A stretch of DNA of 64,000 nucleotides from Minisyncoccota bacterium (GTDB lineage: Bacteria > Patescibacteriota > Minisyncoccia > Phycocordibacterales > UBA9973): the NCBI GenBank assembly GCA_041659205.1, contig JBAZYS010000003.1, forward strand, positions 3,266 through 67,265, read 5' to 3'. Position numbers and translations under genes: made by a program. The notes under the pieces were generated by a model. That model did no database searches. It was not told the origin of the DNA and worked only from the letters and a program-made list of their open reading frames with translations. Positions 13,703 to 61,307 of the stretch are shown here, piece after piece; positions within the stretch are counted from its first letter, which is position 1; each line of letters opens with the position of its first letter.

Positions 13703-14321
13703 TGTTGAAATATAACATATTTACAATTATTTTACGATATAAGATAAAAATTATAATTACATTTACTATAACCAAATATAGACTAAAACTATAAATAGTA
13801 AAACTCCAATCCTTAATTATGAACAAGGCTAAAACATTATTTATAACACCCGGTAAATAAACTGATACTGTTTCGGTCTCTGGAAATTTCCAGGATTTTA
13901 CAATTGTTGGCACTGAGGCTAAACCATCACTCAAAATTGCAAAAAGGATAGATATTCCTAAATTGTGAGTAAGTGTATAAAGTACTAAAGCTAACAATGC
14001 AAATATTCCGCAAAATATATCTAAATTAGTAATTTTGAAATAAGCATTTTTTTTCCAAAAGGAAACGATTATTACCACAAGAGGACCAAATCCTGCCATA
14101 AATATAGGTAACACCGAGAGTCCTGCTCCAGCTTTTAATTGAAAGAATGCTCCGATAAAAGGAGCCAGCATCCAAATAAACCAAGAGACTAGATTGGGTC
14201 TAGTCTGTCCAAAAAGCATATCCTTTAAATAAAAGAAATATCCGAGTAGGCTTATAAGAATCGTAATGTAAATTATATTTTCGGGAATCATATTATTTAA
14301 TAAACCTCTTGTTGGTAACAC
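13680..14321 (-). CDS. Hypothetical polytopic membrane protein
   Basis: 213 aa with about 6 predicted TM helices; overlaps the stop of the upstream Cys-rich gene by 25 bp (operonic). Confidence 0.45.
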   Translation of the reverse strand: MLPTRGLLNNMIPENIIYITILISLLGYFFYLKDMLFGQTRPNLVSWFIWMLAPFIGAFFQLKAGAGLSVLPIFMAGFGPLVVIIVSFWKKNAYFKITNLDIFCGIFALLALVLYTLTHNLGISILFAILSDGLASVPTIVKSWKFPETETVSVYLPGVINNVLALFIIKDWSFTIYSFSLYLVIVNVIIIFILYRKIIVNMLYFNNDQQNEK

Positions 14322-16000
14322 TTCTCACAATACACTACTTCTGGTCGATCAGGGGCATAGGAGGTTCTAATTGATTTACCGCATTTCATACATTCGCGGT
14401 CATATAATTTTGGCATTTGAAGTTTCTCAAAACGAGACTGTTCTCTACATTTCAAACACCTATCAGGAAGTGGTATGTTCATCTTACGAAGAAGATCGAA
14501 TTCTAAGCCAGAAATTTTATATCTTCTATCACAATTTAGACAAGAAATCACTTCCTTTAAAATAGAATCATTTACCTCCGTAATGGTTTCTGGCAAAGTA
14601 CTACCAGAAATTGTTGCCTCAACCTGCTGTTCTATTTCGTCATTCCAAGAATACCCGCATTTTAATGCTTCTTCCTTTGTCTTGGTGAAGAATTTATGAG
14701 CATTAGAATTATTATAGGCGAATTTACTAAATCCTGGTTGAAAAAATTCTCCATAAGGCCAAGACCTACCCAATTCATCTATATACGGATTATTTTTCAT
14801 ATCTTCAATAATTTGTTCCTTTAGTTTTAAATATACTTCTTTTGTATATTGTTTATTTAAAATACTATAGCCTTTTCTTTTTAAACTTGAACAACCAAAA
14901 TTATTTTTTGATTCTATGCACCATAAACAATACTCGGAGTTCACCACATCAGGGAAACAATAGGTAGAAAATTTGGAATTACTAACATTGTTACCAAGGG
15001 CTGTTGATTCATAAATAAGTTCTGCTACATGACCCCAGCCAGAATAATCCATACAATCGGCTATTGGTGACACTGTTATAAATTGACACCATTTACTGTT
15101 TTCTGCCTTACTTGCAATATAAATTTCTTTTGAATTCTTAGAATTAAATACATACTCTCCAGTAACATTTAAATTTAAGGAATGCCCAGTATAAAATCTA
15201 TAAGGATGTTCCAACCAAAATTTTTCAGCTTCTTTTCTAACTTTTTTAATACCCGAACGTGTATCTAGTTTTAGTTCTTTTAATTTTTTAAAATATTCCT
15301 CTTTAGAATATTGAGCATTGAATATCTTATAAGAAGACCCACTCAAGTTCACACACCCAACACAATTCATGCATCCGTAACAATTGCGAGAAAACCACAC
15401 TTCCGTACAGGCATCACATTCTTGGGAATAAAAAACACGATAACAATCATTTTGTCCAATACTCTCATAGCAAAGCTCTGATTTAAATATTCTAAGCGAA
15501 TCAGCTGTATCCTTTACTGTATTTAGAAAAGAAGAGTTACAAACATTTTCACAATAATCTGCCCAAATTGTCATAATACAATTTTTTGAAAAGGCGAGCG
15601 AGTTGCTGTAATCACAATTATTTAATGTAAGATATTCAGTTTCAAGGGCAGTTTGTGGAGTTTTTTCTGTAAGTTCTTTTAATTGAGCTAAAAATGGCCT
15701 ATTGGGATCATAATCCATAGCGTATTCTGTTCCGTCCCAACTATCTCCCCACCAACAAGGCTGACAATAAACGGTGATTTTTTGTGAAGGTGAATATATA
15801 GAAAGTGTTCTTTTTCCACACTTATCGCAATTTCTATAAAAAAGAGACCAAGCGTTCATACAGGCTAAACGCCTAATCATCCTACACTCTCCACACCAAG
15901 TTGGCGGTGGAACTTTTATCTTTTCATAAAAATTAAAATCTTCGACTTCTATCGTGAAGTCTTTTTTGCAATTCTGGCAACTTTTTATTTCTGCTTTCAT
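14297..16000 (-). CDS. Cysteine-rich multi-zinc-ribbon protein, paralog A (novel family)
   Basis: 567 aa, about 40 Cys, no signal peptide; N-terminal CQNCKKDF...FYEKIKVPPP.WCGECR and C-terminal CLNCDRRYKI...KMNIPLPDRCLKCR share the same motif; two internal repeats each end in NC..C..C.GC... + Y.I.N.QYSKEEY..LK; C-terminal YCEKCYQQEVY. Confidence 0.7.
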   Translation of the reverse strand: MKAEIKSCQNCKKDFTIEVEDFNFYEKIKVPPPTWCGECRMIRRLACMNAWSLFYRNCDKCGKRTLSIYSPSQKITVYCQPCWWGDSWDGTEYAMDYDPNRPFLAQLKELTEKTPQTALETEYLTLNNCDYSNSLAFSKNCIMTIWADYCENVCNSSFLNTVKDTADSLRIFKSELCYESIGQNDCYRVFYSQECDACTEVWFSRNCYGCMNCVGCVNLSGSSYKIFNAQYSKEEYFKKLKELKLDTRSGIKKVRKEAEKFWLEHPYRFYTGHSLNLNVTGEYVFNSKNSKEIYIASKAENSKWCQFITVSPIADCMDYSGWGHVAELIYESTALGNNVSNSKFSTYCFPDVVNSEYCLWCIESKNNFGCSSLKRKGYSILNKQYTKEVYLKLKEQIIEDMKNNPYIDELGRSWPYGEFFQPGFSKFAYNNSNAHKFFTKTKEEALKCGYSWNDEIEQQVEATISGSTLPETITEVNDSILKEVISCLNCDRRYKISGLEFDLLRKMNIPLPDRCLKCREQSRFEKLQMPKLYDRECMKCGKSIRTSYAPDRPEVVYCEKCYQQEVY

Positions 16001-16026: not shown

Positions 16027-16293
16027 TTAAATTTTCGACTCGTTTTTTATATACTCTATAATTCTTCTTCTAAACATTCTTCTTCCTGTGCTTGTTTTTA
16101 AATACTTTTCGCGACGTTTAGCATCATTTTCGTTTAAACAAGCTTCGTAATATATCAATTTCCATGGTATATATCTTTTAGTCGAAAAATTTAACCCTTG
16201 ATTATGTTCTTTCAACCTACGCTTAAGATCTTTTGTATAACCAAAGTATAACTCATTATATGTTTTACTTTCTAAACAATAAATATAGAACAT
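16027..16293 (-). CDS. GIY-YIG nuclease-superfamily small protein (YhbQ/UPF0213-like)
   Basis: 88 aa; FYIYCLE...LYFGYTKDLKRRLKEHN is the classic GIY-YIG signature. Confidence 0.7.
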   Translation of the reverse strand: MFYIYCLESKTYNELYFGYTKDLKRRLKEHNQGLNFSTKRYIPWKLIYYEACLNENDAKRREKYLKTSTGRRMFRRRIIEYIKNESKI

Positions 16294-16320: not shown

Positions 16321-17193
16321 TCATATCCCTTCTTTTTTCAACTCTTCCAAGAGTTCACGGGCTTTTTTAGAAATCTTACTAGGTATTTTTACTCTTATTC
16401 TTATGAGGAGGTTTCCAGTAGTTCCTCTCGAGGCCGCTTCCCCATAGCCTGTCATCTGAACAGTTTCTCCGTCTCTTATCCCGGCAGGAATATTTATTGA
16501 GACTTCTTCTTCACGACGAAGTACTCCTTTGCCTTTACATGTTTCGCATTTTTCTTTTGGCACTTCTCCTGCACCAAAACAAACTTCACAAGCTCTTGTG
16601 CTTCCAATGTTTCCAAAGATTGTTCTCTTTTGTTCGTGAATTTTACCTTGACCATTGCAATGTTTACAGGTTTCCATTTTAGAACCAGCTTTTGCCCCAG
16701 AGCCCTTACAAGTTAGACAAGTCGAGAGTTTAGTAAGTAAAATCTTCTTATTTACACCCAAGATAGAATCAGTAAGTAAAATTTGTATTTCAGTAGATAT
16801 GTCTCTGCCTCTTTTTGGCTGTGGCCTACCCCCACCCATGCCTCCACCACCTCCAAAAAAATCACTGAATATGTCATTCAAATTTCCGAAATCAAAATCA
16901 GCACTCTGATAAGCCCCTCCACCATTAAAATCAAAACCTCCGAAGCCTTGCGCACCTCCTCCATATCCGCCCGCTCCTGCACTTTCAAAGCCTGAACCAT
17001 ATTGGTCGTATTTTGAACGCTTAGCATCATCAGAAAGGACTTGATAAGCTTCATTCACTTTCTTAAACTCAACCTCATTACCTCCCTTTTTATCAGGGTG
17101 ATGTTTGTGCGCCAACTTATAAAAGGCCTTTTTAATTTCGTCTTTTGACGCACCTTTATTAACGCCTAAAATTTCATAATAATCCTTGCTCAT
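16321..17193 (-). CDS. dnaJ: Chaperone DnaJ (short form with truncated C-terminal domain)
   Basis: J domain with HPD (KLAHKHHPDK), G/F-rich linker, four CxxCxGxG zinc-finger repeats; 290 aa. Confidence 0.85.
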   Translation of the reverse strand: MSKDYYEILGVNKGASKDEIKKAFYKLAHKHHPDKKGGNEVEFKKVNEAYQVLSDDAKRSKYDQYGSGFESAGAGGYGGGAQGFGGFDFNGGGAYQSADFDFGNLNDIFSDFFGGGGGMGGGRPQPKRGRDISTEIQILLTDSILGVNKKILLTKLSTCLTCKGSGAKAGSKMETCKHCNGQGKIHEQKRTIFGNIGSTRACEVCFGAGEVPKEKCETCKGKGVLRREEEVSINIPAGIRDGETVQMTGYGEAASRGTTGNLLIRIRVKIPSKISKKARELLEELKKEGI

Positions 17194-17202: not shown

Positions 17203-18723
17203 CTATATCATGGGCTCCCCTTCTTGGGAAGCATTTATTTCATCATTTTCATTATCATTTTTTTCTTGTTCTTTTCTTTTATTTCTTCCTTCAATTATTG
17301 CTTTTTCTTCTACGCTTCGAATAATTGTGGCTTCTTCTTCGGCAATAAGCTTCGCTGCATCGTCCTTCGGTATTGAATATTTTCTGCGGGATGCGTCTAT
17401 AATCTCTTGCCTATACGAAGGATGGGTAGGTGCTAATACTCGAAGAGTCTCTGCAGAAAATGGGTCATAAGATTCCCCATCAATTGTCATTTTTATGTAA
17501 AATTCTGCAACTGCAAGATTTATCATATCTTTTACGTCGAAAACAGGCGCGAATTCCGGCTTTAATTTTACAGCATCCTCACCTCCAACACGGAAACAAA
17601 TCACACTTCCGACATTTCCAAGCACAGCCTGATAAACTTTGGGTATAATCTGTCCCACATATTGATGAGCAATTGTTAAATTCAATCCATACTTTCTAGC
17701 TTCAGATAAAATATTTTCAAAGGTTTGGGTAACGACATTTTGGAACTCATCCACATATAGATAAAAATCGGTGCGGTCTTTCTCCGGTATTGCTGCGCGC
17801 TCCATTCCGGCTTGTTTTATTTTCGTCAAAAATATAGAACCAAGGAAAGAAGAATTTTCTTCACCGAGCCTACCCTTAGAAAGATTAATAAAAATTATTT
17901 TTCCTTCATTCATTAATTTACTAATATCTATTTTATTTTGTTTCTGGCCGAAAATATTTCGAAGCAGTGGGTCAGAGAGGAATTGACCAAGCTTATTAAC
18001 GAGCGGAATAATGGCATCTGTGTCGAATTTCTCAGACCAGTCAGCGAATTCAATAGCGAAGAATCTCTTCACCATGTCATCTGTAATGTACTCCACTACT
18101 TTCTGTCTGTAATTTCTATCAGTTAACATTGAAATCATCCCACGCATTGTGGCATGAGGATAATCCAGGAGTGCTAGACAAGTAAAACGAAAAACGTGTT
18201 CGAGACGAGGTGTCCAGTTTGCTCCGAATTGTTTCTGGAAAACTTCGATGAGCCCTTGAGTAAGTTGAAACTTAAACATTGGGTCAACATTTGCAAGTGG
18301 ATTAAAGGATGCGGGAAAATCGATATCTGCAGGGTCGATAATGCAAACATCTTCAATGCGTTCCTTCGGAATATAGTCGAGCATTGCATCTATCACGTCA
18401 CCGTGGGGGTCAATCAAACACAAGCCATGACCATACGACACATCTTGGCGTATGAAAAGTTCAAGAAGTTTTGTTTTACCGACGCCCGACTTGCCTATTA
18501 TGTATAAATGCCTTCGGCGGTCTACTCGCTTAATACCGAAAACAAATTTCTTTTCTTCCAGAGAAGCTACGTAGTTCGTTCGTCCAATAAAAGACACGTC
18601 TTCTGGCTTTACCTTTCCGAAGACTGGCAATTCTGGTGGCGGCGGAGCATATTTTATTATTTGTACTCGATTAGGCTTTGCCATATATTCCTTTATTTTA
18701 CTACAATTTTCCCCTACTTTCAA
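17203..18723 (-). CDS. Soluble FtsK/HerA-superfamily P-loop ATPase (VirD4/VirB4/HerA-like), paralog 1
   Basis: 506 aa; Walker A YIIGKSGVGKT; DPHGD 25 aa downstream; Walker B YLYVDEFQN; SEARKYGLNLTIAHQYVGQ motif; no TM segments. Confidence 0.65.
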   Translation of the reverse strand: MKVGENCSKIKEYMAKPNRVQIIKYAPPPPELPVFGKVKPEDVSFIGRTNYVASLEEKKFVFGIKRVDRRRHLYIIGKSGVGKTKLLELFIRQDVSYGHGLCLIDPHGDVIDAMLDYIPKERIEDVCIIDPADIDFPASFNPLANVDPMFKFQLTQGLIEVFQKQFGANWTPRLEHVFRFTCLALLDYPHATMRGMISMLTDRNYRQKVVEYITDDMVKRFFAIEFADWSEKFDTDAIIPLVNKLGQFLSDPLLRNIFGQKQNKIDISKLMNEGKIIFINLSKGRLGEENSSFLGSIFLTKIKQAGMERAAIPEKDRTDFYLYVDEFQNVVTQTFENILSEARKYGLNLTIAHQYVGQIIPKVYQAVLGNVGSVICFRVGGEDAVKLKPEFAPVFDVKDMINLAVAEFYIKMTIDGESYDPFSAETLRVLAPTHPSYRQEIIDASRRKYSIPKDDAAKLIAEEEATIIRSVEEKAIIEGRNKRKEQEKNDNENDEINASQEGEPMI

Positions 18724-18747
18724 TTCGGACGCAGGGCGTCCAAAACG

Positions 18748-20418
18748 CTAGTAAACCTCTTTTTGATAGCATTCTGTACAATACATTATCGGAGCAACAT
18801 CCTCGGTCAAATTTGTGTGAGTTTCTTTCCCACAATTAGAGCATTTACGAACAAAAAACTTAAATGATCCCCGACGGCGAATACGGTCATGATGTCTGCA
18901 GTAAAAACATTGACGTGGAATTGGCAATACCATCTTTTTATAAAAAATATATTCTTGTTCGGTAATTTTATAATTTCTTTCGCAAGAAGTACATTTTAAT
19001 ATTTCATGTATGATTGAATCATCTATATCTTTAATATGATCTGGGATATTTTCAGATAATAGTGTTTCTTTGCCTTTAGTTGTTTGAATGTCATCTTCCC
19101 ATCGGAAACCTTGTATAAGTGCTTCATTTTTAGTTAAAGGCAAATTATCTTGAGCGATTGTTTCATTATAAGCAAAAGGTGCAATATTTGGTGGCATCAT
19201 TAAACCATGAATTCCAAGCATTATTAATTCATCTATTATGTGTTTTTTTAGCTCTTCGTATTCATCTTTTGAATATTCTTTATTAAAGATAGAATAACGT
19301 CCATTCCTTAAAGCATCGCATCCTATGCAATCGTGACAATTTCTTATTTCAAATGAATATAAAATATTACTACAATTTTCAGGCCAATAAGAACCTATCA
19401 CGTTGCTACAGTATCCAGTAGCAACCACTTCAAGCAATAATTCTGATTGAGTTCCATAGCCGATAGTTCCCAGAGAATCCTTTATGTTTTTAGAGGAAAA
19501 AAGATACCTTGAATTTTCCCCTTTTGAAACTTCGAATGAATTATAAACGTTCTTGCACTCCGTCAAATAGTCTCCTATCGAATTTACCGTCTTTAGATTA
19601 TTATTTTCTCTTCTTGGAAGAGTTTTAGAAAATTCAATAAACTTCTTTTTTGCTTCTTCAGTTTTTTTATAACTCCCTTTTATCTCCTGAATTCTTTTTT
19701 GATATTCATCAGCACTTAGTTGTTCATTAAAATAACAATTGCTTTTATTTCTTAAATTTACACAACCAAAACAGTTTGTAAGCCCACTACCATTCAAGAT
19801 AAAAGATGAGTCTACGCAACTCGTAACATTTTGACTCCATAATACGCTAGCAGATTCTTGAACATTTATGCATTCATAACAGCGTTCAAAATTAACTCCA
19901 AAATATATATCTGAGGAATCCAACCCTTTTTTAACACCCCTTGAATAGAGGAGGTCTTCTGATGGACTGGTATTAAAAACTAAGTAACAATTTCTACAAC
20001 CACCAGCCATATTAGTATATTCACTATTAATATTGGGTCCATCACCAGAAGAAATGCCTAAATTTATTTTAGGAACTTTAATTAAAAATTCCCCCATTTG
20101 GTCAAAAAAAGGGCGATTTTTATCATATTCCGTAGCATAATCTTTCGGGTCCCATTTTTCAGAGTAAAAACAGTCATAACAATATTTTTTGTATGATGAT
20201 TTTGGATTATACATTGTGATAATATGTTTCTGACATAAATCACATTTTTGCCCAGAATATAATGTGGTCTCGTTTCTCCACATTGCACGCATCTTAAAAC
20301 GACAATCAGGACAAACTTTCGGCACTGGTACTTTCATTCTTTCGTAAAATGAAAAATCATCCATTTCTAAGGTGAAATCCTGTTTGCAATTCTGACAATT
20401 TCTCGTTTCATTTCGCAT
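18748..20418 (-). CDS. Cysteine-rich multi-zinc-ribbon protein, paralog B
   Basis: 556 aa; same architecture as paralog A (CQNCKQDF...FYERMKVPVP..CPDCR; internal Y.IFNKEYSKDEY; C-terminal YCTECYQKEVY). Confidence 0.7.
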   Translation of the reverse strand: MRNETRNCQNCKQDFTLEMDDFSFYERMKVPVPKVCPDCRFKMRAMWRNETTLYSGQKCDLCQKHIITMYNPKSSYKKYCYDCFYSEKWDPKDYATEYDKNRPFFDQMGEFLIKVPKINLGISSGDGPNINSEYTNMAGGCRNCYLVFNTSPSEDLLYSRGVKKGLDSSDIYFGVNFERCYECINVQESASVLWSQNVTSCVDSSFILNGSGLTNCFGCVNLRNKSNCYFNEQLSADEYQKRIQEIKGSYKKTEEAKKKFIEFSKTLPRRENNNLKTVNSIGDYLTECKNVYNSFEVSKGENSRYLFSSKNIKDSLGTIGYGTQSELLLEVVATGYCSNVIGSYWPENCSNILYSFEIRNCHDCIGCDALRNGRYSIFNKEYSKDEYEELKKHIIDELIMLGIHGLMMPPNIAPFAYNETIAQDNLPLTKNEALIQGFRWEDDIQTTKGKETLLSENIPDHIKDIDDSIIHEILKCTSCERNYKITEQEYIFYKKMVLPIPRQCFYCRHHDRIRRRGSFKFFVRKCSNCGKETHTNLTEDVAPIMYCTECYQKEVY

Positions 20419-20419
20419 G

Positions 20420-22597
20420 TTATTCTAGAATTTTTCTTAATACATCTTCGGGCACCTCCTTTGTTGTTGGTTTTTGAGGTATTGGCATTGGAGTTGGTGT
20501 AGGAGTAGGAGTAGGTGTTGAAATTGGAGTTGAAATTGGGGCTGGAGTTGGAGTTTTTTGCGAAATCAAATCTTTTAATTTATTCATCTCGTCTACACCT
20601 GCAGAACGGTCATTACGAGGAATAAAACTCCCACCAGATGGACTGGCAAGTTTATTTTCTTCTTGCTTGATTTTATCTTTTAACGTATCGAGAGAAACGG
20701 GTTCAGGTGTAGGAATCTTAACTGGAATAGGAATTGGAGGTGAAATTACTGGACTTACCTCCTGATTTTGCAAAGTTTTATTCAAAACTTCTCTTAAGGC
20801 TGAATTATCCACTTTTTTAGGAATCTCAGCTTTAGTCTTAACAACTTTTACAGTAGGAACAAAAACTTTTTTAATCGTCCCAATTATTCCTGGTTTACCC
20901 GCCAAAAAGGAGGGCTTTGATACTGAAGAAACTTGCTTAAATGCTGGTATAGGAGGTTTCGGTACGAAAGCAGGTTTCGGTGTAGGTTTTTCTACTCTTT
21001 CTGGATATCTATTATTTTCTTCAACTTTTTTACCTTTTTGCTCAAATTCTATTCCTAAATCAGCTAATGGTTTAAAAAATTTAGATTCATCATAATTTAT
21101 TTGGTCTTGTCCTTTTTTTTCTACCTTTACCTCTCCAGATTTTATTTTTGCAATACATTCCTTACAATAGACTGCTCTACCTGGTTCTGGTTTAAACGGC
21201 ACAGTCTTCTCTAGTTTACAAAGTGAACAAATAACTGGAAATTTTTCCATACTTGAAGAAGAAGCGGATTCATTAAAACCTCCAAGTGACATTCCACTCC
21301 AATCATTAATTTCTCTCTCCACTACTCCTCTTGGCTTACAATAAAGAGCTCGAGAAGAGTTTATAACTGCATCTTCGATTTTCTTGTCACCAGACTTTAC
21401 CATTGGCGGAAGTGTCTTCGCAGAAAATGGTCTAGACGTCACACCATCAATCATTAATTTCAAATAAATTTTATAGTTCGGTAAATTTACAATATCTGAA
21501 GGAGTAAATTCTGGATCAAATTCTTTTTCCAAAAAGTCTGCATCGTCAGAACCGACACGAAAGACAATCATCGTACCCACGTTTCCGAAAACAGCATCTC
21601 GTACTGCAGAACTCTTGTCCACGACAAGCTGGGCTGTGTACTGGTGGGCCACAGTAAGGTTCAATCTGTATTTTCTAGCCTCAGACAAAATACCTGCAAA
21701 AGCATCCGTCACGAAATTTTGAAATTCGTCGACATATAGGTAAAAGTCCTTACGATGATCCTCAGGAATACGCACGCGCTCCATGGCGGCAAGCTGAATC
21801 TTGGTAATAATCATTCCACCCAAGAGGCCGGAATTGTCTTCACCAATGCGCCCCTTAGAAACGTTCACCAGAAAAATCTTCCCATCGTTCATAATGTCGA
21901 AAATATTGATAGTACTTAAAGATTGACCGACGACGTTGCGGATGATAGATGTAGAGAGAAATTGCCCAACTTTATTTTGAATCGGAGCAATTGCCTCATT
22001 TCTAAATTTATCTTGCCAAGCTTCGTATTCGTGAATCCAAAAAGCCTTGATAACTGGATCTTTTAAATTCGCAATTATTTTCTGACGATAATCTTTATCA
22101 ACTAGCATCCTAGGAATACCTAATAGTGTCGTTCCCGGAGTATCAAGCAAAGCTAGAATACAATTATTTAAAATATATTCCATTCGAGCACTCCAGGCAT
22201 TCGCCCAAATTTTAGTAAAAATTCCCATCAGTCCCGAAGCTACGAGATGCTTGTATTGAGGGTCAATAAGTTCAAGAACATTAAAACCTATATGATGTTC
22301 AGTGTCAGCTGGGTTGAAATAAACTACATCCTTAATGCGCTCTGGTGGAATAGAAGACAGAACTCCCTCAACGAGCTCTCCGTGCGGGTCAACTACGCAG
22401 ACCCCTTCGCCATTCTGGATGTTCTGAATAATCATGTTGAACATAAGCACAGATTTACCTGTACCTGACTTTCCGAGAATATAAACATGCTGGCGTCTAT
22501 CCTTGCGTTTTATGCCGAAGAGCTGATTTTTATCACGAAAAGTAGTAAGACCCAGATAGGTAACATCTTTATTTATAGGTATTTCTGGAAGTTCCAT
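20420..22597 (-). CDS. Soluble FtsK/HerA-superfamily ATPase, paralog 2, with C-terminal zinc ribbon and Pro/Thr-rich disordered tail
   Basis: 725 aa; Walker A YILGKSGTGKS, DPHGE, YLYVDEFQN, ARKYRLNLTVAHQYTAQL; then CSLCKLEK...P.P..AVYCKECIAK (a zinc ribbon resembling the Cys-rich proteins' C-terminus) and TPTPAPISTPISTPTPTPTP low-complexity. Confidence 0.65.
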   Translation of the reverse strand: MELPEIPINKDVTYLGLTTFRDKNQLFGIKRKDRRQHVYILGKSGTGKSVLMFNMIIQNIQNGEGVCVVDPHGELVEGVLSSIPPERIKDVVYFNPADTEHHIGFNVLELIDPQYKHLVASGLMGIFTKIWANAWSARMEYILNNCILALLDTPGTTLLGIPRMLVDKDYRQKIIANLKDPVIKAFWIHEYEAWQDKFRNEAIAPIQNKVGQFLSTSIIRNVVGQSLSTINIFDIMNDGKIFLVNVSKGRIGEDNSGLLGGMIITKIQLAAMERVRIPEDHRKDFYLYVDEFQNFVTDAFAGILSEARKYRLNLTVAHQYTAQLVVDKSSAVRDAVFGNVGTMIVFRVGSDDADFLEKEFDPEFTPSDIVNLPNYKIYLKLMIDGVTSRPFSAKTLPPMVKSGDKKIEDAVINSSRALYCKPRGVVEREINDWSGMSLGGFNESASSSSMEKFPVICSLCKLEKTVPFKPEPGRAVYCKECIAKIKSGEVKVEKKGQDQINYDESKFFKPLADLGIEFEQKGKKVEENNRYPERVEKPTPKPAFVPKPPIPAFKQVSSVSKPSFLAGKPGIIGTIKKVFVPTVKVVKTKAEIPKKVDNSALREVLNKTLQNQEVSPVISPPIPIPVKIPTPEPVSLDTLKDKIKQEENKLASPSGGSFIPRNDRSAGVDEMNKLKDLISQKTPTPAPISTPISTPTPTPTPTPMPIPQKPTTKEVPEDVLRKILE

Positions 22598-22636: not shown

Positions 22637-23599
22637 TTATTTGTCTTTGTAAATATCTCTTACTTGACCTGTATGTGGATCAAAAGCTCCCCTATTTTTA
22701 CTAAAAATATCAAATGCTGGATCCTTTTTCTTTACAAAAGAATCGACTAACTTAAAATCGTTCGGATGATCTTTCAAAAAACTTTCAGGATTTGTGAAAT
22801 ACTCTGCACAAATTTCAGCCCAGTATTCATGTGCTGCTCTTAATAATCCATCCCTTGTTCCGTTCAAATGTGGTAAATAATCAGAATTTATATCATCTTT
22901 ACCAAAAGCATCAGGAGCCATGAGCCTTTTATGAACTTCTAGCAATTGAGTTTGCCTTTCTAAAATATTTAAATTTATATCACTGTCCCAATCATTAGCA
23001 TGGGCAAATTCGTGCGCAATCGTAGTATTGTCTACTGGTATTGTGCCACCACTCAATTCTGGATTGGTGTATAAATAAACATTGCCTCCCTGAAAACCAC
23101 CAAGTTTACTATGCCCTCTTGAGGTTTCTTTAATAGAAGAAATAAATTTTATTTGTTTAATTTGTCCAGAAATCCATCCTTTAGGATAAGCTCCGTATTT
23201 TTCTGTGAATAAATACTTAGGTTCAACGGAAAAATTTTTTCCCTCAAACCCTTTTAGTTCAGGATCTTTTTTTTCTTCTTTGTTTTGAAAATATGCATTC
23301 TGGTCTCCTTCATTTATTTGACTCACAGCGCCATAACCAAAAATTTTTTTAATTTCTGTCTCGTTTGTTTCTTTTTGTTTCAATTGTTCTGGATTAAAAG
23401 AGGATGTGATATGTCTATTATATTCAATATCTTTATTTACAGATTTTACTGCTTCACCTGCAACAAAAAGAGCCCCGGCCGCAAGACCAACTTTACCAAT
23501 CTTCTTAAAACAAACCAAAGATTTACCGAATATATTTTCGGCCTGTTTTTGTGGATCTTCTTCTTTTTTATCAATAGATCTAGTTCCTTCAAGGTTCAT
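22637..23599 (-). CDS. Membrane-anchored putative zinc metallopeptidase (HExxH zincin)
   Basis: 320 aa; N-terminal TM (VGLAAGALFVAGEAV); HEFAH motif (TIAHEFAHANDWD) plus downstream AAHEYWAE; no closer family recognised. Confidence 0.45.
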   Translation of the reverse strand: MNLEGTRSIDKKEEDPQKQAENIFGKSLVCFKKIGKVGLAAGALFVAGEAVKSVNKDIEYNRHITSSFNPEQLKQKETNETEIKKIFGYGAVSQINEGDQNAYFQNKEEKKDPELKGFEGKNFSVEPKYLFTEKYGAYPKGWISGQIKQIKFISSIKETSRGHSKLGGFQGGNVYLYTNPELSGGTIPVDNTTIAHEFAHANDWDSDINLNILERQTQLLEVHKRLMAPDAFGKDDINSDYLPHLNGTRDGLLRAAHEYWAEICAEYFTNPESFLKDHPNDFKLVDSFVKKKDPAFDIFSKNRGAFDPHTGQVRDIYKDK

Positions 23600-23669: not shown

Positions 23670-25568
23670 TTAAACTTTTGGAGCTTCTTCTTCTCCTTCA
23701 GTTTTCTCTTTTACTTCCGCAGCTTGCTCTTCTGGAGCACTTGCTCCTGGAGCCTCTGCGCCGGCACCGGCCTTAGATACGGCTTCGCCAATCTTAGACA
23801 TCTCTGTTGAGAGTTCTTCGGTAGCTTTCTTTATCGCCTCACCGTCAGTACCATCTTTTACTCCACGGAGAGCAGTGATTTTTGCATTAACTTCATCTTT
23901 CAATTCTGCAGGAATTTTAGCTTCATTATCTTTCAATGTTTTCTCCGCAGTGTAGATAATCATTTCCGCTGTATTTTTTATATCAACAACTTCCTTTTTC
24001 TTTTTATCTTCTTCTGCATGAAGTTCAGCGTCAGCTTGCATTTTTTTAATTTCTTCGTCCTTAAGACCAGAACTTGCTTCAATCTTAATTGACTGACTTT
24101 TACCTGAAGCTTTATCCTTTGCAGTAACATTCAAGATCCCGTTCGCATCGACGTCGAAAGCGACTTCAATCTGTGGCATACCACGAGGTGCTGGTGGAAC
24201 TCCATCCAAGATAAATCGTCCTAGGGATTTATTGTCGGAAGCCATTGGGCGTTCACCTTGAACTATATGAATTTCAACAGAAGTCTGATTGTCCGCAGCC
24301 GTAGAAAATACTTGCGATTTTGAAGACGGAATAGTGGTATTTCTTTCAATTAATTTTGTTGCTACTCCTCCTAATGTCTCAATACCTAATGATAGAGGTA
24401 TAACATCAAGAAGAAGAACATCACGCACATCACCAGCGAGCACTCCTGCCTGCACTGCAGCACCGAGAGCCACAACTTCATCAGGATTGATGGACATATT
24501 TGGAGCCTTGCCGAAAAGAGTCTGCACCGCAGAAACTATCGCTGGCATTCTCGTCTGACCACCTACCATAATGATTTCATTGATGTCATTCATTTTAAAT
24601 GGTGAGGCGGCGAGAGCTCTCTTTGTAATTTCAATTGAGCGATCAATGTATTCCTTTGCAAGAGATTCGAGCATCGCCCGAGTCATTTTCAAAAGTAAGT
24701 GCTTTGGCCCTGATGCATCAGAAGTTATAAATGGAATATTTATTTCAGTTTCCATGGTTGTAGAAAGTTCGTGTTTCGCTTTTTCTGCTGCTTCTTTTAG
24801 TCTCTGATGAGCTAGAGGATCCTTAATAACATCAATCCCTGACTCCTTTTTGTATTCATCCGCGATCCAAGAAATAATTTTTCTATCGATGTCTCCTCCG
24901 CCCATGTGACTGTCTCCATCTGTAGACTTTACTTCTATGACATCATCACCTATCTCTAGAACAGACACGTCAAAAGTACCTCCACCGAAATCGTAGACGA
25001 CAATCTTTTCATTTTTCTTTTTATCGAAACCATAAGCGAGCGCTGCTGCAGTTGGTTCATTGATAATACGCTTCACATCGAGGCCAGCAATAGCTCCTGC
25101 ATCCTTAGTAGCTTTTCTTTGAGCATCGTTGAAATATGCGGGAACGGTAATGACAGCTTCAGTAATCTTTTCACCAAGCTTTGCCTCCACATCTGTTTTA
25201 ATTTTTTGCAAAATCATCGCAGAAATTTCTTCTGGACGATAAAATTTATCTGTCATTTTCACCTTTACTCCACCCCCATCCCCAGCTTCAATTTTAAATG
25301 AGGCTGTTTGTCTATCCTTCTGTACTTCTGGATCATCAAAACGATGCCCCATGAAGCGCTTCATTTCCGCAATCGTATTTTCTGGATTTGTGACTGCTTG
25401 CCTCTTCGCAAGTAAACCGACGATACGGTCACCATTTTTTGCAGTCGCCACCACAGAAGGGGTCGTGCGATTACCTTCGACATTTTCAATAATCTTTGGT
25501 GCGCCTCCTTCAATGAAAGCGACAGCCGAATTTGTTGTACCTAAATCTATTCCTATTATTTTGCTCAT
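23670..25568 (-). CDS. dnaK: Chaperone DnaK (Hsp70)
   Basis: 632 aa; [18 protein letters not shown], and a full NBD plus SBD. Confidence 0.95.
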
Positions 25569-25655: not shown

Positions 25656-26192
25656 ATGTCAAGAAAAGTAGACTATTCAAAGAAAATACTTAAGGTTTTA
25701 GGTGAAAAATCGGCTATTTCCCTACCTGAATTGATAGATAGAATAAGCCCCGAAGAGTGCTCCCAAAGCTCTAAATACGCCCTTACGCGCTCTTTAAAAG
25801 GTCTTCGAGATGCTGGCCTCATCGAACAAATACCATCCTCCCAGAACGAATATGCCAGGCTAACTAAAGAAGGTAGAAAAAAAATGAATAGCCTAAAACT
25901 AGATAATAACACCACTTTGGTAAATACTTCTTGGGATGGTTTTTGGAGGATAATTCTTCTCGACCTCCCAGAGAACAGAAAAGCAGAACGAGAGAGCTTA
26001 CGTTACCTTTTAAAAAAAGCGGGCTTCATATGTTTAAAAAATTCTGCCTGGATTTCCCCTTTCCCATACGAACACTTATTTACAAATATTAAAAAAGATC
26101 TAGGGCTAACTACAGAAATGATGATTATTGTCACTGAAAATATAGACGAGGAGAGCAAAAAAGTTTTATTTAAAACTTTCGGAACCCGGTAG
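25656..26192 (+). CDS. Winged-helix transcriptional regulator, PaaX-like family
   Basis: 178 aa; N-terminal wHTH resembling the PaaX N-terminus; divergently transcribed from dnaK. Confidence 0.5.
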   Translation: MSRKVDYSKKILKVLGEKSAISLPELIDRISPEECSQSSKYALTRSLKGLRDAGLIEQIPSSQNEYARLTKEGRKKMNSLKLDNNTTLVNTSWDGFWRIILLDLPENRKAERESLRYLLKKAGFICLKNSAWISPFPYEHLFTNIKKDLGLTTEMMIIVTENIDEESKKVLFKTFGTR

Positions 26193-26719: not shown

Positions 26720-28390
26720 TTAAGCCATATTTTGTTTATAACATTCTTCGCAAGCAATTTTTTGGTATTCCCATTCCGGTAAATAATATGCCTCAATGTC
26801 CTTTTTACAATAAAAACAAGAGTATGGATACGCCTGAAGAGCCGTCAAATACTTTAATTGATTTCTTGTTCGTACGTCAAAATGATATCGTGGAAGTGGG
26901 ATACTATTTTCTTTATAGAATATCAATTCATTTTGTGCAATATTAAAACGCCAATTAGATTTTGGGCAGATAAGTGCTTGATTAATAATAGAATCTGAAA
27001 CATCTTTTATATCGTCAGGTAATTCATTTGTTTGCATTCCTTCAATATTACTTTCATCAACATCTTCCCAATAACCACCCAGCCTTAAAATATCTTCTTT
27101 TTTTGTATCTCCAAAATACAAATAACTAGTAGAAAAATTAAATGATCCAGCGCTCATTGAATATGGCAAAAACTTTCCATATTCCCCATTTTTTTTCATA
27201 TTTGAAATAATTTTATTTTTCAAAATTTCATATTCCTCTTTACTATATTGCTTATTTAAAATACAATATTTCTTTTTCTTTATACCAACACAACCAAAAC
27301 AATATTCACATTCAGTACAAATGTCTAAATATTCGGAATATCTTGAAGAAGACCAAACACTGTATTTTTCTGCATAACCATACAGGCAACAACTACAATT
27401 TCCAGATAATTCAGTAAACCAGCAACCATCAGCGTCGATATTAGACTTTTCGTTAATGCCCCTAATGCAGTTATGACAATCTTCAGAATTGCTGATGGTG
27501 TTGCAATTGTGGCAATTTTTACAATCTAATAAATAATCTCCATCAGAACTATATATTTTAAAATTAAAATTTTCCCTATGAACAACTTCATTTTTTATTA
27601 TTTCATCAAAACGTTCTTTAAAAGATTGTATAGATTCATAAGATCCAAGATTAAATGATTTTAATTTTTCTTCATATTCTTCCTTGGTGTATTGCTTATT
27701 TTCTATGCAATATTGTTTATTACGTAGATTCCAACTCATGAAACAATTCTGGCAATTTCTACAATCATATAAAAAGCTTGATTCTATACAATCACGAGAA
27801 TGCTTTGAATAAAAAAGTTTATAAGAATGATGACAATCTGAGCAGTCAAAACTTTTTTCACAACTAAAACATATTGTCATATCTATAGAATTTTTTACAT
27901 AAAAACCTCTATATGAATAAAACAAATCTTCACATTGTTCCAACGAACGTGATAAATAACAATTTTTAGAATTCCAGACATCATCACACCAATCACATTT
28001 TATGTTTTTAGTACCATTCTGATGTGGATGAGGAACACGCTCTTGAAGATCTTGCAATTGTTTAAAAAATAGTTGATTCTCATTATATTCTACTCCATAA
28101 TCCATAGCGTCCCATTTATCGCTGTACCATTCCTTAGAAGTATAAATAGGATATCTATTTTTCTCTGGTAAAACTGTAATTAAGCCTTCTCCTGATAAAT
28201 CTGATTTCCCTTTACGAAATTTTCCAAACATCCAGAATGATAAATGTAATTTAACACGGCAAAAAAAACACAAAATGGGTAATTCAATATCAACTTTTTG
28301 ATATAAAGAAAATTCCTCTTCTGTAATTATGAAGTCTTTTTTACAATGTTCACAAATTCTATTCTCCTTTTTCTTTGAATTCATACACAT
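26720..28390 (-). CDS. Cysteine-rich multi-zinc-ribbon protein, paralog C
   Basis: 556 aa; CEHCKKDF...; internal duplicated module with YCIENKQYTKEEYEEKLK and YCILNKQYSKEEYEILKNK; overlaps the grpE stop by about 30 bp. Confidence 0.7.
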   Translation of the reverse strand: MCMNSKKKENRICEHCKKDFIITEEEFSLYQKVDIELPILCFFCRVKLHLSFWMFGKFRKGKSDLSGEGLITVLPEKNRYPIYTSKEWYSDKWDAMDYGVEYNENQLFFKQLQDLQERVPHPHQNGTKNIKCDWCDDVWNSKNCYLSRSLEQCEDLFYSYRGFYVKNSIDMTICFSCEKSFDCSDCHHSYKLFYSKHSRDCIESSFLYDCRNCQNCFMSWNLRNKQYCIENKQYTKEEYEEKLKSFNLGSYESIQSFKERFDEIIKNEVVHRENFNFKIYSSDGDYLLDCKNCHNCNTISNSEDCHNCIRGINEKSNIDADGCWFTELSGNCSCCLYGYAEKYSVWSSSRYSEYLDICTECEYCFGCVGIKKKKYCILNKQYSKEEYEILKNKIISNMKKNGEYGKFLPYSMSAGSFNFSTSYLYFGDTKKEDILRLGGYWEDVDESNIEGMQTNELPDDIKDVSDSIINQALICPKSNWRFNIAQNELIFYKENSIPLPRYHFDVRTRNQLKYLTALQAYPYSCFYCKKDIEAYYLPEWEYQKIACEECYKQNMA

Positions 28391-28955
28391 TCACCCGGGC
28401 TGGGCGCATGACGCGTTCGCCTAGCTTATAACCCTTCTGAGTTACAGTGGCTACCTTATGTTCTAATTCTTTTCTGTCTGTTTCTACAACATCTATAGAC
28501 TGATGAATACTAGGATCAAAACTCTCCCCCACTTCTCCGACGGGCTTTACTCCATATTCCTCGAATATTCCGTTCATCTGTGCATAAATATATTCCACAC
28601 CTTTGCGCCAATTATCTTCTACTTTTTCCCAAGCATCTTTGTTTGCAAAAGCCATATTAAAACTATCAATCACAGAAAGAAAACGAGTAAGAATTCTCTC
28701 ACGCATCGCTTCTGAAAAAATAGCTTTTCTCTCATCTTCTTGTTTTCTATAGTTAGCAAATTCTGCTCGCTCCTTCTGCCAGCCAGTCAAATACTCTTCC
28801 TTTTCTTTCTTGAGCTCTTTTATATCCGCTCTAAATTTCTTTAAAGTTTTCTTCAAATCCTCTTCCCCGTCTTCATTGAATTCAAATTCAAGAACCTCGG
28901 AATCATCCTTTTTTTCCTCAAGATTATCTTCTTTTTTAATTTCTTCATCTGCCAT
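28359..28955 (-). CDS. grpE: Nucleotide exchange factor GrpE
   Basis: 198 aa; coiled-coil N-terminus and GrpE C-terminal beta domain. Confidence 0.85.
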   Translation of the reverse strand: MADEEIKKEDNLEEKKDDSEVLEFEFNEDGEEDLKKTLKKFRADIKELKKEKEEYLTGWQKERAEFANYRKQEDERKAIFSEAMRERILTRFLSVIDSFNMAFANKDAWEKVEDNWRKGVEYIYAQMNGIFEEYGVKPVGEVGESFDPSIHQSIDVVETDRKELEHKVATVTQKGYKLGERVMRPARVNVYEFKEKGE

Positions 28956-33300: not shown

Positions 33301-34659
33301 TTACTTAAGAAAATCGACTGTCAATTTTATATCTTTTGTTTTACTTGGAATGGTTTGAATCCAAAGTGGGCTTAATTTTAAGGTAGCAGAATCAATGCCA
33401 GGATATTCTGCAAGGATTTGGGTAAAGTCCTTTTTTGATTTATTGAGTAAATTAGCTGTAAATTTATTTACGTCAAGCTTCCAAACAATCTTTGCGGGAC
33501 CTGTTAAACTAAAATTAATACTATTTACACTCTCAAACGAAATACTATCTTTGTTGAAAAGTGTAAAAGCTAAATCTTTAATATTTGGTATATAAACTTC
33601 ACTATTATCATATTTCTCAATATTGTTTTTAGCAATTTTTTGAGTAAGTTTTTGTTCATTGAAAATAATACCATAGAGAGTACCCTTCAAAGTTAGAACA
33701 GCTGAACCATCTGCTTTAGCTTCACCAGCAATAATGTCATCAACTTTTAATGCTGTAGCATCCTTATACAATAAAAATCCAGGAATCTGACTCGCAATTT
33801 TATTATAAAGTTTATCTCTCAGGGACGTCTCCAGCTCTTTCCCTATATCAGTTTTTTGAGTATCACTAAAAATGCGAGATTTCCCGACGATTCCTCCTGT
33901 GATACTTCCGACAGAGCGACCATCAAATTTGGCATATCTACTCGTGCCTTTAAAACCTGCAATTTTAAAATCAAGCGGGCCACTATTATACGCAGACCCC
34001 TGTTCGGCTGCATAAATATCTACTCCGACTTGCCCCGGTGTGCCATCCTTTGCCATACCAGGAACTACAACTTTCTTTTTTGTTTTGTAAATTTTATTAT
34101 TTGAACCTTCAAGTCGTGTATCAATGGCAAGTGTTTGGGGGCTGCCATTAAATTTGTTGTAAACAATTATTTTACCCTTTGCACTTTCTTTGTAGTCCTG
34201 CTCCTCTAAAATTATTGTTTTCGAATCTTCACCAGAGAAGTGCGCAAGCTCAAAAGGTAAAACATCAGCATTTGAATCAAGACTCGCAGACAAATTCTCG
34301 TTCAGTACTACATCCTTCATTTTGAGCTTTACTGTTACTTCCGCTCTAGAAAATAAAAATGAAATAGCAAAAAAACAAAATACAACAGAAATGAATGCAA
34401 TAAACCAAAGCATAAACCTTGACTTGCTTTGGTTTGAGTTTCTCTCTCCTAAGTTTATACTTGGATATTTTTCCTCTTCTTGAACTCTTTTAAATATTTC
34501 TCTTGGTTTTATTTTAGGCTCAATTTTAAACTCCATCTTTGGTTCTATTTTTGGTTCAATTTTGGGCTCTATTTTGCGTTCAATTTTCGACTCTATTTTC
34601 GGAGTAAATTTTTTTACATGCTTTATTCGCACCATGTCTTGTAGTAATTTTTTGGCCAT
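33301..34659 (-). CDS. Hypothetical single-pass membrane protein with N-terminal (K/E)IEPK tandem repeats
   Basis: 452 aa; 15-nt tandem repeats at about 34500-34630 encode KIEPKIEPKIEPKMEFKIEPKIKP; one TM, then a large extracytoplasmic domain; downstream of a PilM-like gene (PilN/O-like position). Confidence 0.4.
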   Translation of the reverse strand: MAKKLLQDMVRIKHVKKFTPKIESKIERKIEPKIEPKIEPKMEFKIEPKIKPREIFKRVQEEEKYPSINLGERNSNQSKSRFMLWFIAFISVVFCFFAISFLFSRAEVTVKLKMKDVVLNENLSASLDSNADVLPFELAHFSGEDSKTIILEEQDYKESAKGKIIVYNKFNGSPQTLAIDTRLEGSNNKIYKTKKKVVVPGMAKDGTPGQVGVDIYAAEQGSAYNSGPLDFKIAGFKGTSRYAKFDGRSVGSITGGIVGKSRIFSDTQKTDIGKELETSLRDKLYNKIASQIPGFLLYKDATALKVDDIIAGEAKADGSAVLTLKGTLYGIIFNEQKLTQKIAKNNIEKYDNSEVYIPNIKDLAFTLFNKDSISFESVNSINFSLTGPAKIVWKLDVNKFTANLLNKSKKDFTQILAEYPGIDSATLKLSPLWIQTIPSKTKDIKLTVDFLK

Positions 34660-34661
34660 AA

Positions 34662-59409: not shown

Positions 59410-59796
59410 TTAATTTATTGTCGGCAAAGTAATTGTACCAGAGTTACTGACATCAAAAGTCTTGGTCAAAATACCTACAAGACCCCACATAGCAATAATG
59501 ACAGCCAAACCAATGATACCGAAGATTATGCGGTCTCTTCCTGCTTTTTTAGCTTCCTCGTCACTTGAGATAACATAGGTAATAACTCCCCAAACGAAGT
59601 AAACTACGCCTAGAGCAATCAAAACTGGCACAACTGCATTAAGGATTTGACCAATTTTACATAGTACTGTAAACAATGTTCCTTGCCCTGCATTAGCCGC
59701 ACAATTACTTCCACCTGTTGTAGTGACCTGTGCCAAAGCAACAAGAGGAGAAAAACCTAAAACAGAACCAGACAACACAATTAATTTCTTTTTCAT
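59410..59796 (-). CDS. VirB2/TrbC-like pilin family protein, paralog 2
   Basis: 128 aa; signal peptide ...VALAQV; helix-EEAKKAGRDR-helix (IIFGIIGLAVIIAMWGLVGIL). Confidence 0.5.
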   Translation of the reverse strand: MKKKLIVLSGSVLGFSPLVALAQVTTTGGSNCAANAGQGTLFTVLCKIGQILNAVVPVLIALGVVYFVWGVITYVISSDEEAKKAGRDRIIFGIIGLAVIIAMWGLVGILTKTFDVSNSGTITLPTIN

Positions 59797-59873
59797 AATT
59801 ATTTCTTCCTAACTTCTAATAATAAACGCGACCTAATAATGCTAATAATATCCTTGTATTATACTCCTTGCTA

Positions 59874-60926: not shown

Positions 60927-60935
60927 ATATTTTAT

Positions 60936-61307
60936 TTATAACGCTAGCACTGTAGCTGATATCATCTTTGCTATAGCCCATGAACCTAATAATATTGCTG
61001 CCCCTATCAATGTATACATAAGTGCTTCTTTTGCTTTGCTTAGCTTCTCAGAATTACCCCTTGCAAAAACAAAAAGAAAACCACAATAAATAATTGCGAG
61101 CGCCACTACTGGTATACCTATTTTCAACATGCCTTCAAGGATTTTCTGAATAAGCCCTGGGACCGAAGTTATACTTGGAATTGGATTTTCAATCTTACCA
61201 CCACGAGCCTCTGTTCCACTTCCTTGTGCATAAAGTGTAAAAATAGGAATAATAAATAAATAAACTGCTAAAGTAATTTTGCCCCAGTTTTTCTTAAAAA
61301 ATTTCAT
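60936..61307 (-). CDS. VirB2/TrbC-like pilin family protein, paralog 4
   Basis: 123 aa; signal peptide ...LYAQGSGT; helix-NSEKLSKAKE-helix. Confidence 0.5.
   Translation of the reverse strand: MKFFKKNWGKITLAVYLFIIPIFTLYAQGSGTEARGGKIENPIPSITSVPGLIQKILEGMLKIGIPVVALAIIYCGFLFVFARGNSEKLSKAKEALMYTLIGAAILLGSWAIAKMISATVLAL

Follow-up and report, generated by a model that had tools for sequence, protein, structure and literature searches.

Which machine is served by two soluble ATPases that resemble type IV coupling proteins (T4CPs), carry no membrane helix of their own and lie among the chaperone genes of a bacterial chromosome? The question is raised by 64,000 nt of a Minisyncoccota bacterium (Patescibacteriota; GenBank assembly GCA_041659205.1, contig JBAZYS010000003.1, positions 3,266 to 67,265), hereafter the window, meaning the whole stretch of DNA that was analysed. 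An original prediction, made from the sequence alone, had described the two proteins as VirD4/VirB4/HerA-like ATPases without membrane anchors. It had proposed that they may be components of a type IV secretion system (T4SS)-like apparatus of the candidate phyla radiation (CPR) type or, alternatively, HerA-like translocases acting on the adjacent Cys-rich proteins. On balance, we favour the view that they are the motor/receptor subunits, both cytoplasmic, of a machine that is split, fixed in the chromosome and descended from a T4CP.

Two soluble ATPases of the coupling protein type

The two ATPases and their recognizable parts are as follows.

17203-18723, minus strand: ATPase-1 (A1 type), a soluble T4CP-like ATPase, 506 aa as read from a TTG
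17206-17217, minus strand: terminal EPMI peptide of ATPase-1, a short motif on a tether, conserved at homologue C-termini
20420-22597, minus strand: ATPase-2 (A2 type), a soluble T4CP-like ATPase (residues 1-435) followed by a zinc ribbon and a disordered Pro-rich tail, 725 aa
21143-21247, minus strand: zinc ribbon of ATPase-2, CxxC-x17-CxxC (residues 451-485), of the zf_Tbcl_2 and TIGR04272 families
20423-21142, minus strand: low-complexity Pro/Thr/Lys-rich tail of ATPase-2 (residues 486-725, about 240 aa), as read from the sequence
20423-20458, minus strand: terminal peptide of ATPase-2, EVPEDVLRKILE, kept within the clade

The two proteins are paralogues (45% identity over 429 aa, E = 5e-132), and every FtsK-HerA hallmark originally listed for them was found at the expected spacing. 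The motifs are GKSGVGKT at residue 77, DPHGD at 105, FYLYVDE at 320, EARKYG at 341 and AHQY at 352 in ATPase-1, and GKSGTGKS at residue 42, DPHGE at 70, FYLYVDE at 285, EARKYR at 306 and AHQY at 317 in ATPase-2. ATPase-1 is made of a nucleotide-binding domain with an inserted helical domain, followed by a charged linker and the C-terminal EPMI. Its translation probably starts not at the TTG at 18723 but at the ATG at 18684, for a product of 493 aa: homologues start at this ATG (97% query coverage), which is preceded at 6 nt by AAGGAA. The Cys4 ribbon and low-complexity end described for ATPase-2 are present as well: the cysteines are C457, C460, C478 and C481 (Pfam zf_Tbcl_2, E = 1.9e-10; TIGR04272, E = 9e-11), and the Pro-rich tail stands after the ribbon, not before it. 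A search for 19-mers above 1.4 on the Kyte-Doolittle scale found none in either protein, and therefore neither contains a transmembrane helix. The description "without membrane anchors" is thus correct in cis but does not extend to the genome, as a homologous anchor domain is encoded separately, at 41057-42451 (see below).

Both ATPases pass the Pfam gathering scores of TrwB_AAD_bind (27.4 and 41.5 bits; cutoff 20.5), T4SS-DNA_transf (25.9 and 30 bits; cutoff 20.1), DUF87 and TraG-D_C, in support of the FtsK-HerA superfamily membership first proposed. Their best NCBIfam matches are TraD and VirD4-like (for example CD1115) models, but the top scores, 54 bits where the cutoff is 366 and 49.5 bits where it is 250, are far too low for orthology to a named equivalog. 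When the PDB was searched with a profile of 13 diverse homologues, TrwB (1e-6) came ahead of DotL (3e-5) and HerA (2e-3). An AlphaFold2 monomer model of ATPase-2 residues 1-500 (pLDDT 85.7, pTM 0.80) has an all-helical insertion at residues 113-223, and Foldseek ranked DotL, TrwB (TM-score ~0.6) and Cagbeta first among its relatives, followed by HerA, DndH-C and VirB4. The all-alpha insertion within the nucleotide-binding domain that characterizes T4CPs is therefore predicted here too, the model superposing on TrwB, Cagbeta and DotL at TM-scores of 0.5-0.63. The proteins thus share with TrwB (R388), VirD4, DotL and Cagbeta an FtsK-HerA-type, RecA-like nucleotide-binding domain with Walker A and B motifs and an inserted all-helical domain. 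Unlike these, they have no N-terminal transmembrane domain in the same polypeptide, are only 12-16% identical to them, and occur as two paralogues per genome within the chromosomal core, with no virB4 or relaxase signal in the window or among the neighbours checked.

The other families that had been named fit less well. A VirB4-like identity was not borne out: AAA_10 scores 16.3 bits (cutoff 27.5), VirB4-type NCBIfam models score 14-23 bits (cutoffs 325-1020), and the ATPases measure 493 and 725 aa against ~800 aa for VirB4/TraC/TrbE. Pfam FtsK_SpoIIIE matches neither ATPase at E <= 0.01. The proteins resemble archaeal HerA of the HerA-NurA pair and defence-associated HerA in belonging to the same superfamily, in passing DUF87 and in having HerA among their fold matches. 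They are, however, not HerA in the strict sense: T4CPs rank higher, the NCBIfam HerA models are not matched, and no NurA, Sir2 or DUF4297 partner lies nearby. Because the profile and fold rankings both put VirD4/TrwB/DotL-type T4CPs nearest, we conclude that the two proteins are divergent T4CP-like ATPases of the FtsK-HerA superfamily, and not VirB4, FtsK or strict HerA.

An exhaustive homologue search returned 21,811 cluster representatives at E <= 1e-3, and the genome contigs of relatives were scanned with a five-sequence alignment. The nearest relatives are metagenome-assembled genomes of Candidatus Paceibacterota/Nomurabacteria. Both ATPases have strong matches (E = 4e-53 and 6.5e-61) in the uncharacterized phage protein family phrog_5156, at positions 386-818 of its 824-position profile. 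Relatives of the long form are thus also present in phages, large Bacillus phages among them (Bacillus phage G gp156, SPO1 gp27.4 and Microcystis phage Mwe-JY31). The closest relative from outside the Patescibacteria shares 38% identity and is encoded by a non-mobilizable plasmid of Sulfitobacter mediterraneus (NZ_CP081110.1; locus L085, 8989-10176); it is a soluble protein of 395 aa, lies amid transposases and recombinases and has a second copy on the same record.

An anchor domain encoded by a separate gene

Many of the cluster representatives carry a 250-400-aa N-terminal extension, which in some starts with a transmembrane helix. A hidden Markov model (HMM) built from the extensions of 66 fused relatives matches a single open reading frame (ORF) in the window, at E = 5e-52. 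This gene and its upstream neighbour are:

41057-42451, minus strand: membrane-anchored N-domain protein, 464 aa, with homologues labelled Pfam DUF8128, found with the N-extension HMM
42514-43578, minus strand: Sigma70_r4 and HARE-HTH protein, directly upstream of the DUF8128 gene, conserved across Patescibacteria

The 464-aa protein is strongly hydrophobic at its N-terminus, its last residues are ...KEAAPPTNLPI, and its homology to DUF8128-labelled proteins in two of the related loci (L087 and L088; E = 1.6e-44) suggests that it, too, is a member of DUF8128 (PF26449). In the junction alignment, fused relatives read ...EPPSNLPLV...GKTNF...FGI..DRRRH.Y.IGKSG.GKS across the junction, and this sequence matches the N-termini of ATPase-1 (IKYAPPPPELPVFG...) and ATPase-2 (MELPEIPI...); the DUF8128 C-terminus and the ATPase N-termini meet at PPxxLP. 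Across the patescibacterial loci, the DUF8128 gene is directly upstream of, or fused to, an A1- or A2-type ATPase gene in 39 of 84. Given the HMM match, the PPxxLP junction and the existence of fused and adjacent relatives, the comparison indicates that a coupling protein has been split, the soluble ATPases corresponding to its C-terminal half and the 41057-42451 product to its N-terminal half.

The form of the unsplit ancestor is illustrated by the fused proteins of small Bacillus plasmids, for example an 886-aa "DUF87 domain-containing protein" of a Bacillus subtilis plasmid (NZ_CP032854.1), which has the same N-domain (HMM E = 3e-27) and an ATPase of the same family (26% identity over 88% of ATPase-1). 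It differs from the window proteins in being a single polypeptide and in its conjugation-type neighbours, which are a relaxase-like gene, TcpE and a VirB4-like ATPase; no Cys-rich arrays occur there.

T4CPs devoid of a transmembrane domain are a recognized subclass, exemplified by TraJ of pIP501 (PMC7431656), and TraI of the same plasmid is a small protein with two predicted transmembrane domains (PMC12857230). The window ATPases are similar to this pair in that TraJ, in a monoderm-type system, is a soluble coupling ATPase that a separately encoded transmembrane protein is believed to keep at the membrane (PMC7431656, PMC12857230). Compared by description, the window partner differs from TraI in its length of 464 aa, in its large cytoplasmic DUF8128 domain and in being fused to the ATPase in relatives. 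The pIP501 system, moreover, is plasmid-borne and conjugative, whereas the window ATPases are chromosomal core genes.

Two further proteins accompany DUF8128. A protein of ~350 aa with sigma-70 region 4 and HARE-HTH domains is encoded directly upstream of it in 28 related loci (among L030-L088), distant lineages included. It may form part of the module, whether as a regulator or by binding DNA, or its position may reflect no more than synteny. A small hydrophobic transmembrane protein (160-200 aa) is encoded between DUF8128 and A1 in 17 loci (L026, L030, L033, L034, L036-L042, L046, L050, L061, L063, L067 and L068; a further example is 9385-9990 of L087) and could be a fourth component of the ATPase module. 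Neither tblastn nor an iterated HMM search found a homologue of it in the window.

Core-gene conservation and synteny

When the window is compared with three relatives, ATPase-1 is 86-89% and ATPase-2 65-70% identical, with corresponding values of 81-88% for DnaK, 89-90% for DnaB, 85% for RpoA, 64-69% for DnaJ and 35-79% for tRNA synthetases. In distant lineages, including loci labelled Doudnabacteria and Uhrbacteria among others, a common gene order recurs: SecD/F, sigma70_r4/HARE-HTH, DUF8128, (small transmembrane protein), ATPase(s), MnmA, AlaS. The window keeps the order sigma70_r4/HARE-HTH, DUF8128, MnmA (38119-39393) and AlaS (35881-37626), without the ATPases. Since this ancestral frame is retained without them, the ancestral ATPase site appears to be the one after DUF8128, and the ATPase block appears to have been relocated to the dnaK-dnaJ region in this clade. 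The identity level of ATPase-1, which is that of DnaK and DnaB, and the recurrent housekeeping synteny together mark the ATPases, by comparison of genomes, as core chromosomal genes and not mobile cargo. In agreement with this, a survey published in 2025 reported that 2,918 of the 3,035 Patescibacteria genomes examined encode homologues, at about two per genome (PMC12102498).

Conservation at the housekeeping level would also be expected of DNA pumps that act in chromosome or septal translocation or in DNA import, in the manner of FtsK/SpoIIIE or archaeal CedD, with the sigma70_r4/HARE-HTH and zinc-ribbon proteins as DNA-binding accessories. T4CPs were ancestrally DNA translocases, nucleic acids are frequent ligands of zinc ribbons, and the conserved gene upstream of DUF8128 is of a DNA-binding type. 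Weak NCBIfam matches to CedD were found for both ATPases (1.9e-5 and 2.5e-6). However, these matches reach only 24-26 bits, far under the family cutoff of 600, and the FtsK_SpoIIIE family of Pfam is, as noted, not matched. No DNA-processing enzyme is consistently found near the ATPases, and the adjacency of the sigma70_r4/HARE-HTH gene may be plain synteny. We therefore regard a DNA pump of this kind as quite unlikely.

Paired ATPases with distinct terminal peptides

A1- and A2-type genes lie within a few kb of one another in 46 of 84 loci. A few cluster representatives had hinted that A1 is a degenerate, non-catalytic partner, an idea that we rejected: among the ORFs of the related loci, Walker A is intact in 66 of 67 of the A1 type and 56 of 60 of the A2 type, and Walker B in 65 of 67 and 58 of 60, respectively.

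The two types differ in their C-termini. In 214 A1-type homologues the protein ends in EPMI (131) or EPLI (76), and nearly all (212/214) end with a proline and two hydrophobic residues, as do 55 of 66 A1-type ORFs of the related loci; the linker preceding E-P-[M/L]-I is charged and variable. A2-type tails end in conserved peptides specific to each clade, which are EVPEDVLRKILE here and PGETVKF-like or IFPW in others. The zinc ribbon is present in 46 of 60 A2-type ORFs and in no A1-type ORF. The terminal peptides and the ribbon look like tethered docking elements of a paired ATPase system. A precedent for such an arrangement is TraD of the F plasmid, a coupling ATPase whose acidic, flexible C-terminal tail docks onto TraM through its last residues (compare the Pfam entry "TraM recognition site of TraD and TraG"). 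The tail peptides described here, EP[ML]I on A1 and EVPEDVLRKILE, PGETVKF or IFPW on A2, are unrelated in sequence to the TraD tail.

Cys-rich zinc-ribbon proteins as candidate partners

Three genes close to the ATPases encode paralogous Cys-rich proteins.

18748-20418, minus strand: Cys-rich protein 1, 556 aa, 30 Cys, with ribbon pairs at both ends and a Cys-rich centre
14297-16000, minus strand: Cys-rich protein 2, 567 aa, a paralogue of protein 1 (34% identity) whose C-terminal ribbon is zf_Tbcl_2-like
26720-28390, minus strand: Cys-rich protein 3, 556 aa, a ~30% identical paralogue between grpE and dnaK

The three are 30-34% identical to each other, about 560 aa long, and have 30-37 cysteines. 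At each end of Cys-rich proteins 1 and 2, a CxxC-x24-CxxCR ribbon is followed by a CxxC-x17-CxxC ribbon, while Cys-rich protein 3 has one ribbon per end. The ribbon of ATPase-2 is of the same domain type as these terminal ribbons. Within the family as a whole (104 full-length members, median identity 38%), the terminal four-Cys ribbons are kept in at least 80% and the central segments are more variable; none of the 104 has a hydrophobic segment. A structural model (pLDDT 81, pTM 0.82) has no global fold match in the PDB or BFVD. The family matches nothing in Pfam, NCBIfam or PADLOC and has a single weak match in PHROGs (protein 3, E = 3e-4), and a literature search found no paper on it.

The association with the ATPases recurs beyond the window. 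In 42 of 84 loci, one or more Cys-rich genes are found no further than 10 kb from the ATPases, with ten in one locus, and in 11 loci, in which A1 identity ranges from 49 to 85%, A1 is followed on its own strand by such a gene that starts no more than 400 nt away. Comparative genomics thus backs the link to the Cys-rich neighbours that had first been suggested: across these genomes the ATPase pair, DUF8128 and tandem Cys-rich arrays go together, a linkage that appears to be deep. Owing to the common ribbon type and the recurrent, operon-like adjacency, the Cys-rich proteins are the best candidates for partners, clients or adaptors of the ATPases.

Arrays of diversified paralogues are also typical of conflict systems, and HerA-like ATPases might accordingly belong to an anti-phage defence or conflict system in which the variable Cys-rich arrays serve as effectors or sensors. 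The ATPases do match PADLOC mad8 (2e-14 and 2e-13) and, weakly, HerA, in addition to passing the DUF87 cutoff and having HerA structures among their fold matches. We nevertheless rejected this explanation, which we find hardly credible: the context and conservation are those of syntenic core genes and not of a defence island, no NurA, Sir2, DUF4297 or methyltransferase partner is found nearby, HerA is outranked by T4CPs in the profile and fold searches, and the Cys-rich proteins have no counterpart in PADLOC.

Relation to type IV secretion

The pilin-like cluster originally noted at 59-62 kb is real.

59410-61792, minus strand: four tandem VirB2/TrbC-type T4SS pilin genes (T4SS_pilin/TrbC), 37 kb from the ATPases

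One of the pilin gene products is 350 aa long with two pilin-domain stretches, and a gene for a solute-binding protein follows the cluster; up to the end of the window no further T4SS gene is seen.

The ATPases could therefore be ordinary coupling proteins of a patescibacterial T4SS, passing DNA or effectors to a VirB4/VirB6 channel and a VirB2-type pilus encoded elsewhere. T4CPs are their nearest family by both profile and fold, a VirB2-type pilin cluster is present in the same window, and the fused Bacillus plasmid homologue sits within a conjugation gene set. In addition, T4SSs of the monoderm type are widespread in Patescibacteria, and their T4CP genes can be far from virB4 (PMC12102498). 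The genomic evidence for this connection is, however, weak. The window gives no signal of VirB4, VirB6, VirB3 or VirB8, and no VirB4, VirB6 or relaxase signal was seen in it or in the neighbours checked. None of the 88 related loci searched has a pilin homologue at a distance of up to 10 kb from the ATPases, and Pfam scans of the ten neighbouring genes in four distant loci found housekeeping families only. Among 5,713 VirD4-type homologues in Patescibacteria only 148 are near virB4, and these homologues are found in more genomes (2,918 of 3,035) than VirB4 itself (2,417 of 3,035), while relaxases are very few, being nearly absent from the phylum (PMC12102498). In Ca. S. epibionticum, the T4SS is essential for epibiotic growth, unlike the t4cp homologue (PMC12102498), and the authors of the survey themselves raised the possible exaptation of orphan T4CP homologues (PMC12102498). 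Membership of a CPR-type T4SS-like apparatus, as first envisaged, is in our opinion possible though rather doubtful.

A model for a split coupling machine

With this in mind, we favour the following model for the two ATPases. The ancestor would have been a single polypeptide in which a TrwB-like ATPase was joined to a DUF8128 domain and a membrane hairpin, a form that persists unsplit in some Patescibacteria and on the Bacillus plasmid. In the present lineage, this protein has been split at the PPxxLP linker, leaving the anchor half as the 41057-42451 gene, and the ATPase half has been duplicated into A1 and A2. With their Walker motifs intact, A1 and A2 most likely form ATP-driven rings, either homomeric or mixed, that dock on the membrane DUF8128 protein. 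The homology, fold class, split, pairing, level of conservation and gene linkage are shown by the comparisons above, and ring formation, docking and ATP-driven translocation are what we infer. The long flexible tails with their terminal peptides on A1 and A2, as well as the A2 ribbon, would recruit partners or clients, and the best candidates for clients or adaptors would be the cytoplasmic Cys-rich zinc-ribbon proteins from the adjoining arrays.

Several points weigh against this model. The structure prediction covers the ATPase monomer only. Here the DUF8128 gene is 18.5 kb away from the ATPases, and their joint function rests on comparative genomics. Cys-rich neighbours are not obligatory, as the ATPases have no Cys-rich gene nearby in L003, L005, L014, L056, L057 and L063, for example, and the counts of Cys-rich genes cover only the surroundings of the ATPases. 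Zinc-stabilized proteins would also be awkward substrates for a translocase. Finally, the single experimental result speaks against an essential role, at least in Saccharimonadia: the t4cp homologue of Ca. Southlakia epibionticum was reported to be dispensable for epibiotic growth (PMC12102498).

One may speculate further that DUF8128, the two ATPases and possibly the sigma70_r4/HARE-HTH protein form a vertically inherited, Patescibacteria-wide machine, domesticated from a conjugative coupling protein to handle the Cys-rich family, and that it possibly exports members of this family into hosts as episymbiotic effectors. We consider this extended scenario unlikely.

The occurrence of orphan T4CP homologues in Patescibacteria was already published in 2025 (PMC12102498). 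That survey mentions neither DUF8128 nor the split, and no paper found by our literature search mentions DUF8128. Nor did we find a published account of the gene fission, of two paired paralogues that differ in their terminal peptides, of synteny this deep together with conservation at the housekeeping level, or of a link to the Cys-rich arrays. Patescibacteria may make up a sizeable part of bacterial diversity, and most are believed to lead a host-attached life. Among T4SSs, theirs alone has been shown to be required for the growth of a bacterium (PMC12857230), and its cargo, as well as the role of the near-universal orphan coupling protein homologues, are still open questions (PMC12102498). 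The present locus offers testable parts, namely the DUF8128 anchor with A1 and A2, docking peptides and a ribbon that can be mutated, and the Cys-rich proteins as candidate clients. If the ATPases prove to be independent of the T4SS, they would clearly exemplify the domestication of a conjugation motor for a core function of the cell.

The dnaK-dnaJ neighbourhood

Three chaperone genes frame the ATPases in the window; dnaK and dnaJ are given for context only.

28359-28955, minus strand: grpE
23670-25568, minus strand: dnaK, upstream of ATPase-2
16321-17193, minus strand: dnaJ, 9 nt downstream of ATPase-1

The order on the minus strand is grpE, Cys-rich 3, dnaK, a 320-aa ORF, ATPase-2, Cys-rich 1, ATPase-1, dnaJ, GIY-YIG and Cys-rich 2, with a paaX-like gene between Cys-rich 3 and dnaK on the other strand. 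Gaps in the dnaK-dnaJ block are 1-70 nt and contain no terminator-like site, and the best promoter-like site on the minus strand is directly upstream of dnaK. Because of this tight packing and the lack of terminator-like sites, it is plausible that the ATPases are co-transcribed with the chaperone genes in this clade, as a local feature rather than a deep association.

Such an arrangement might suggest that the ATPases are protein-remodelling or unfolding enzymes working with the Hsp70 system, all the more so as the order dnaK, A2, A1, dnaJ recurs in relatives. This order is, however, confined to a single clade (loci with A1 identity of at least 82%), and in loci of lower identity neither dnaK nor dnaJ is beside the ATPases, which there follow DUF8128. 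The window's ancestral frame, kept without ATPases, makes the dnaK site look like a relocation, and a ClpB disaggregase is already encoded at 48656-51358. We thus rejected a functional link to DnaK/DnaJ, and a role in Hsp70-dependent remodelling seems to us very improbable.

Several genes of this neighbourhood have features of their own. The dnaJ product is 290 aa long, against 363-368 aa in relatives, after an in-frame loss of ~78 aa, through which the last part of the first C-terminal domain (GDLYIKINV in L001) now runs directly into that of the second (GDLLIKLKIKLPSKISKK); judging from this alignment, the protein seems to be a DnaJ without one C-terminal substrate-binding domain. Between dnaJ and Cys-rich 2, a stand-alone 88-aa GIY-YIG nuclease-domain gene (16027-16293, minus strand; E = 4.6e-17) could be the remnant of a homing-endonuclease-type mobile gene. 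The 320-aa ORF between dnaK and ATPase-2 (22637-23599, minus strand) matches no family; its N-terminus is mildly hydrophobic, and it contains HEFAH, an HExxH-like motif. It may be a recent insertion, since tblastn finds no counterpart in three relatives (L001-L003). No HrcA was seen among the window ORFs scanned. A PaaX_M (Cas2-like) domain protein, encoded divergently from dnaK (25656-26192, plus strand) in an arrangement kept in relatives, might regulate the chaperone operon.

Elsewhere in the window, two adjacent ORFs (33301-35858, minus strand) encode a 398-aa protein with weak FtsA and Ppx-GppA (actin-like ATPase) matches and a 452-aa protein with no family match. The remainder of the window, whose G+C content is ~36%, consists of housekeeping genes, among them those for aminoacyl-tRNA synthetases, DnaB, RecR, RpoA, IF-2, BipA, ClpB and tRNAs.

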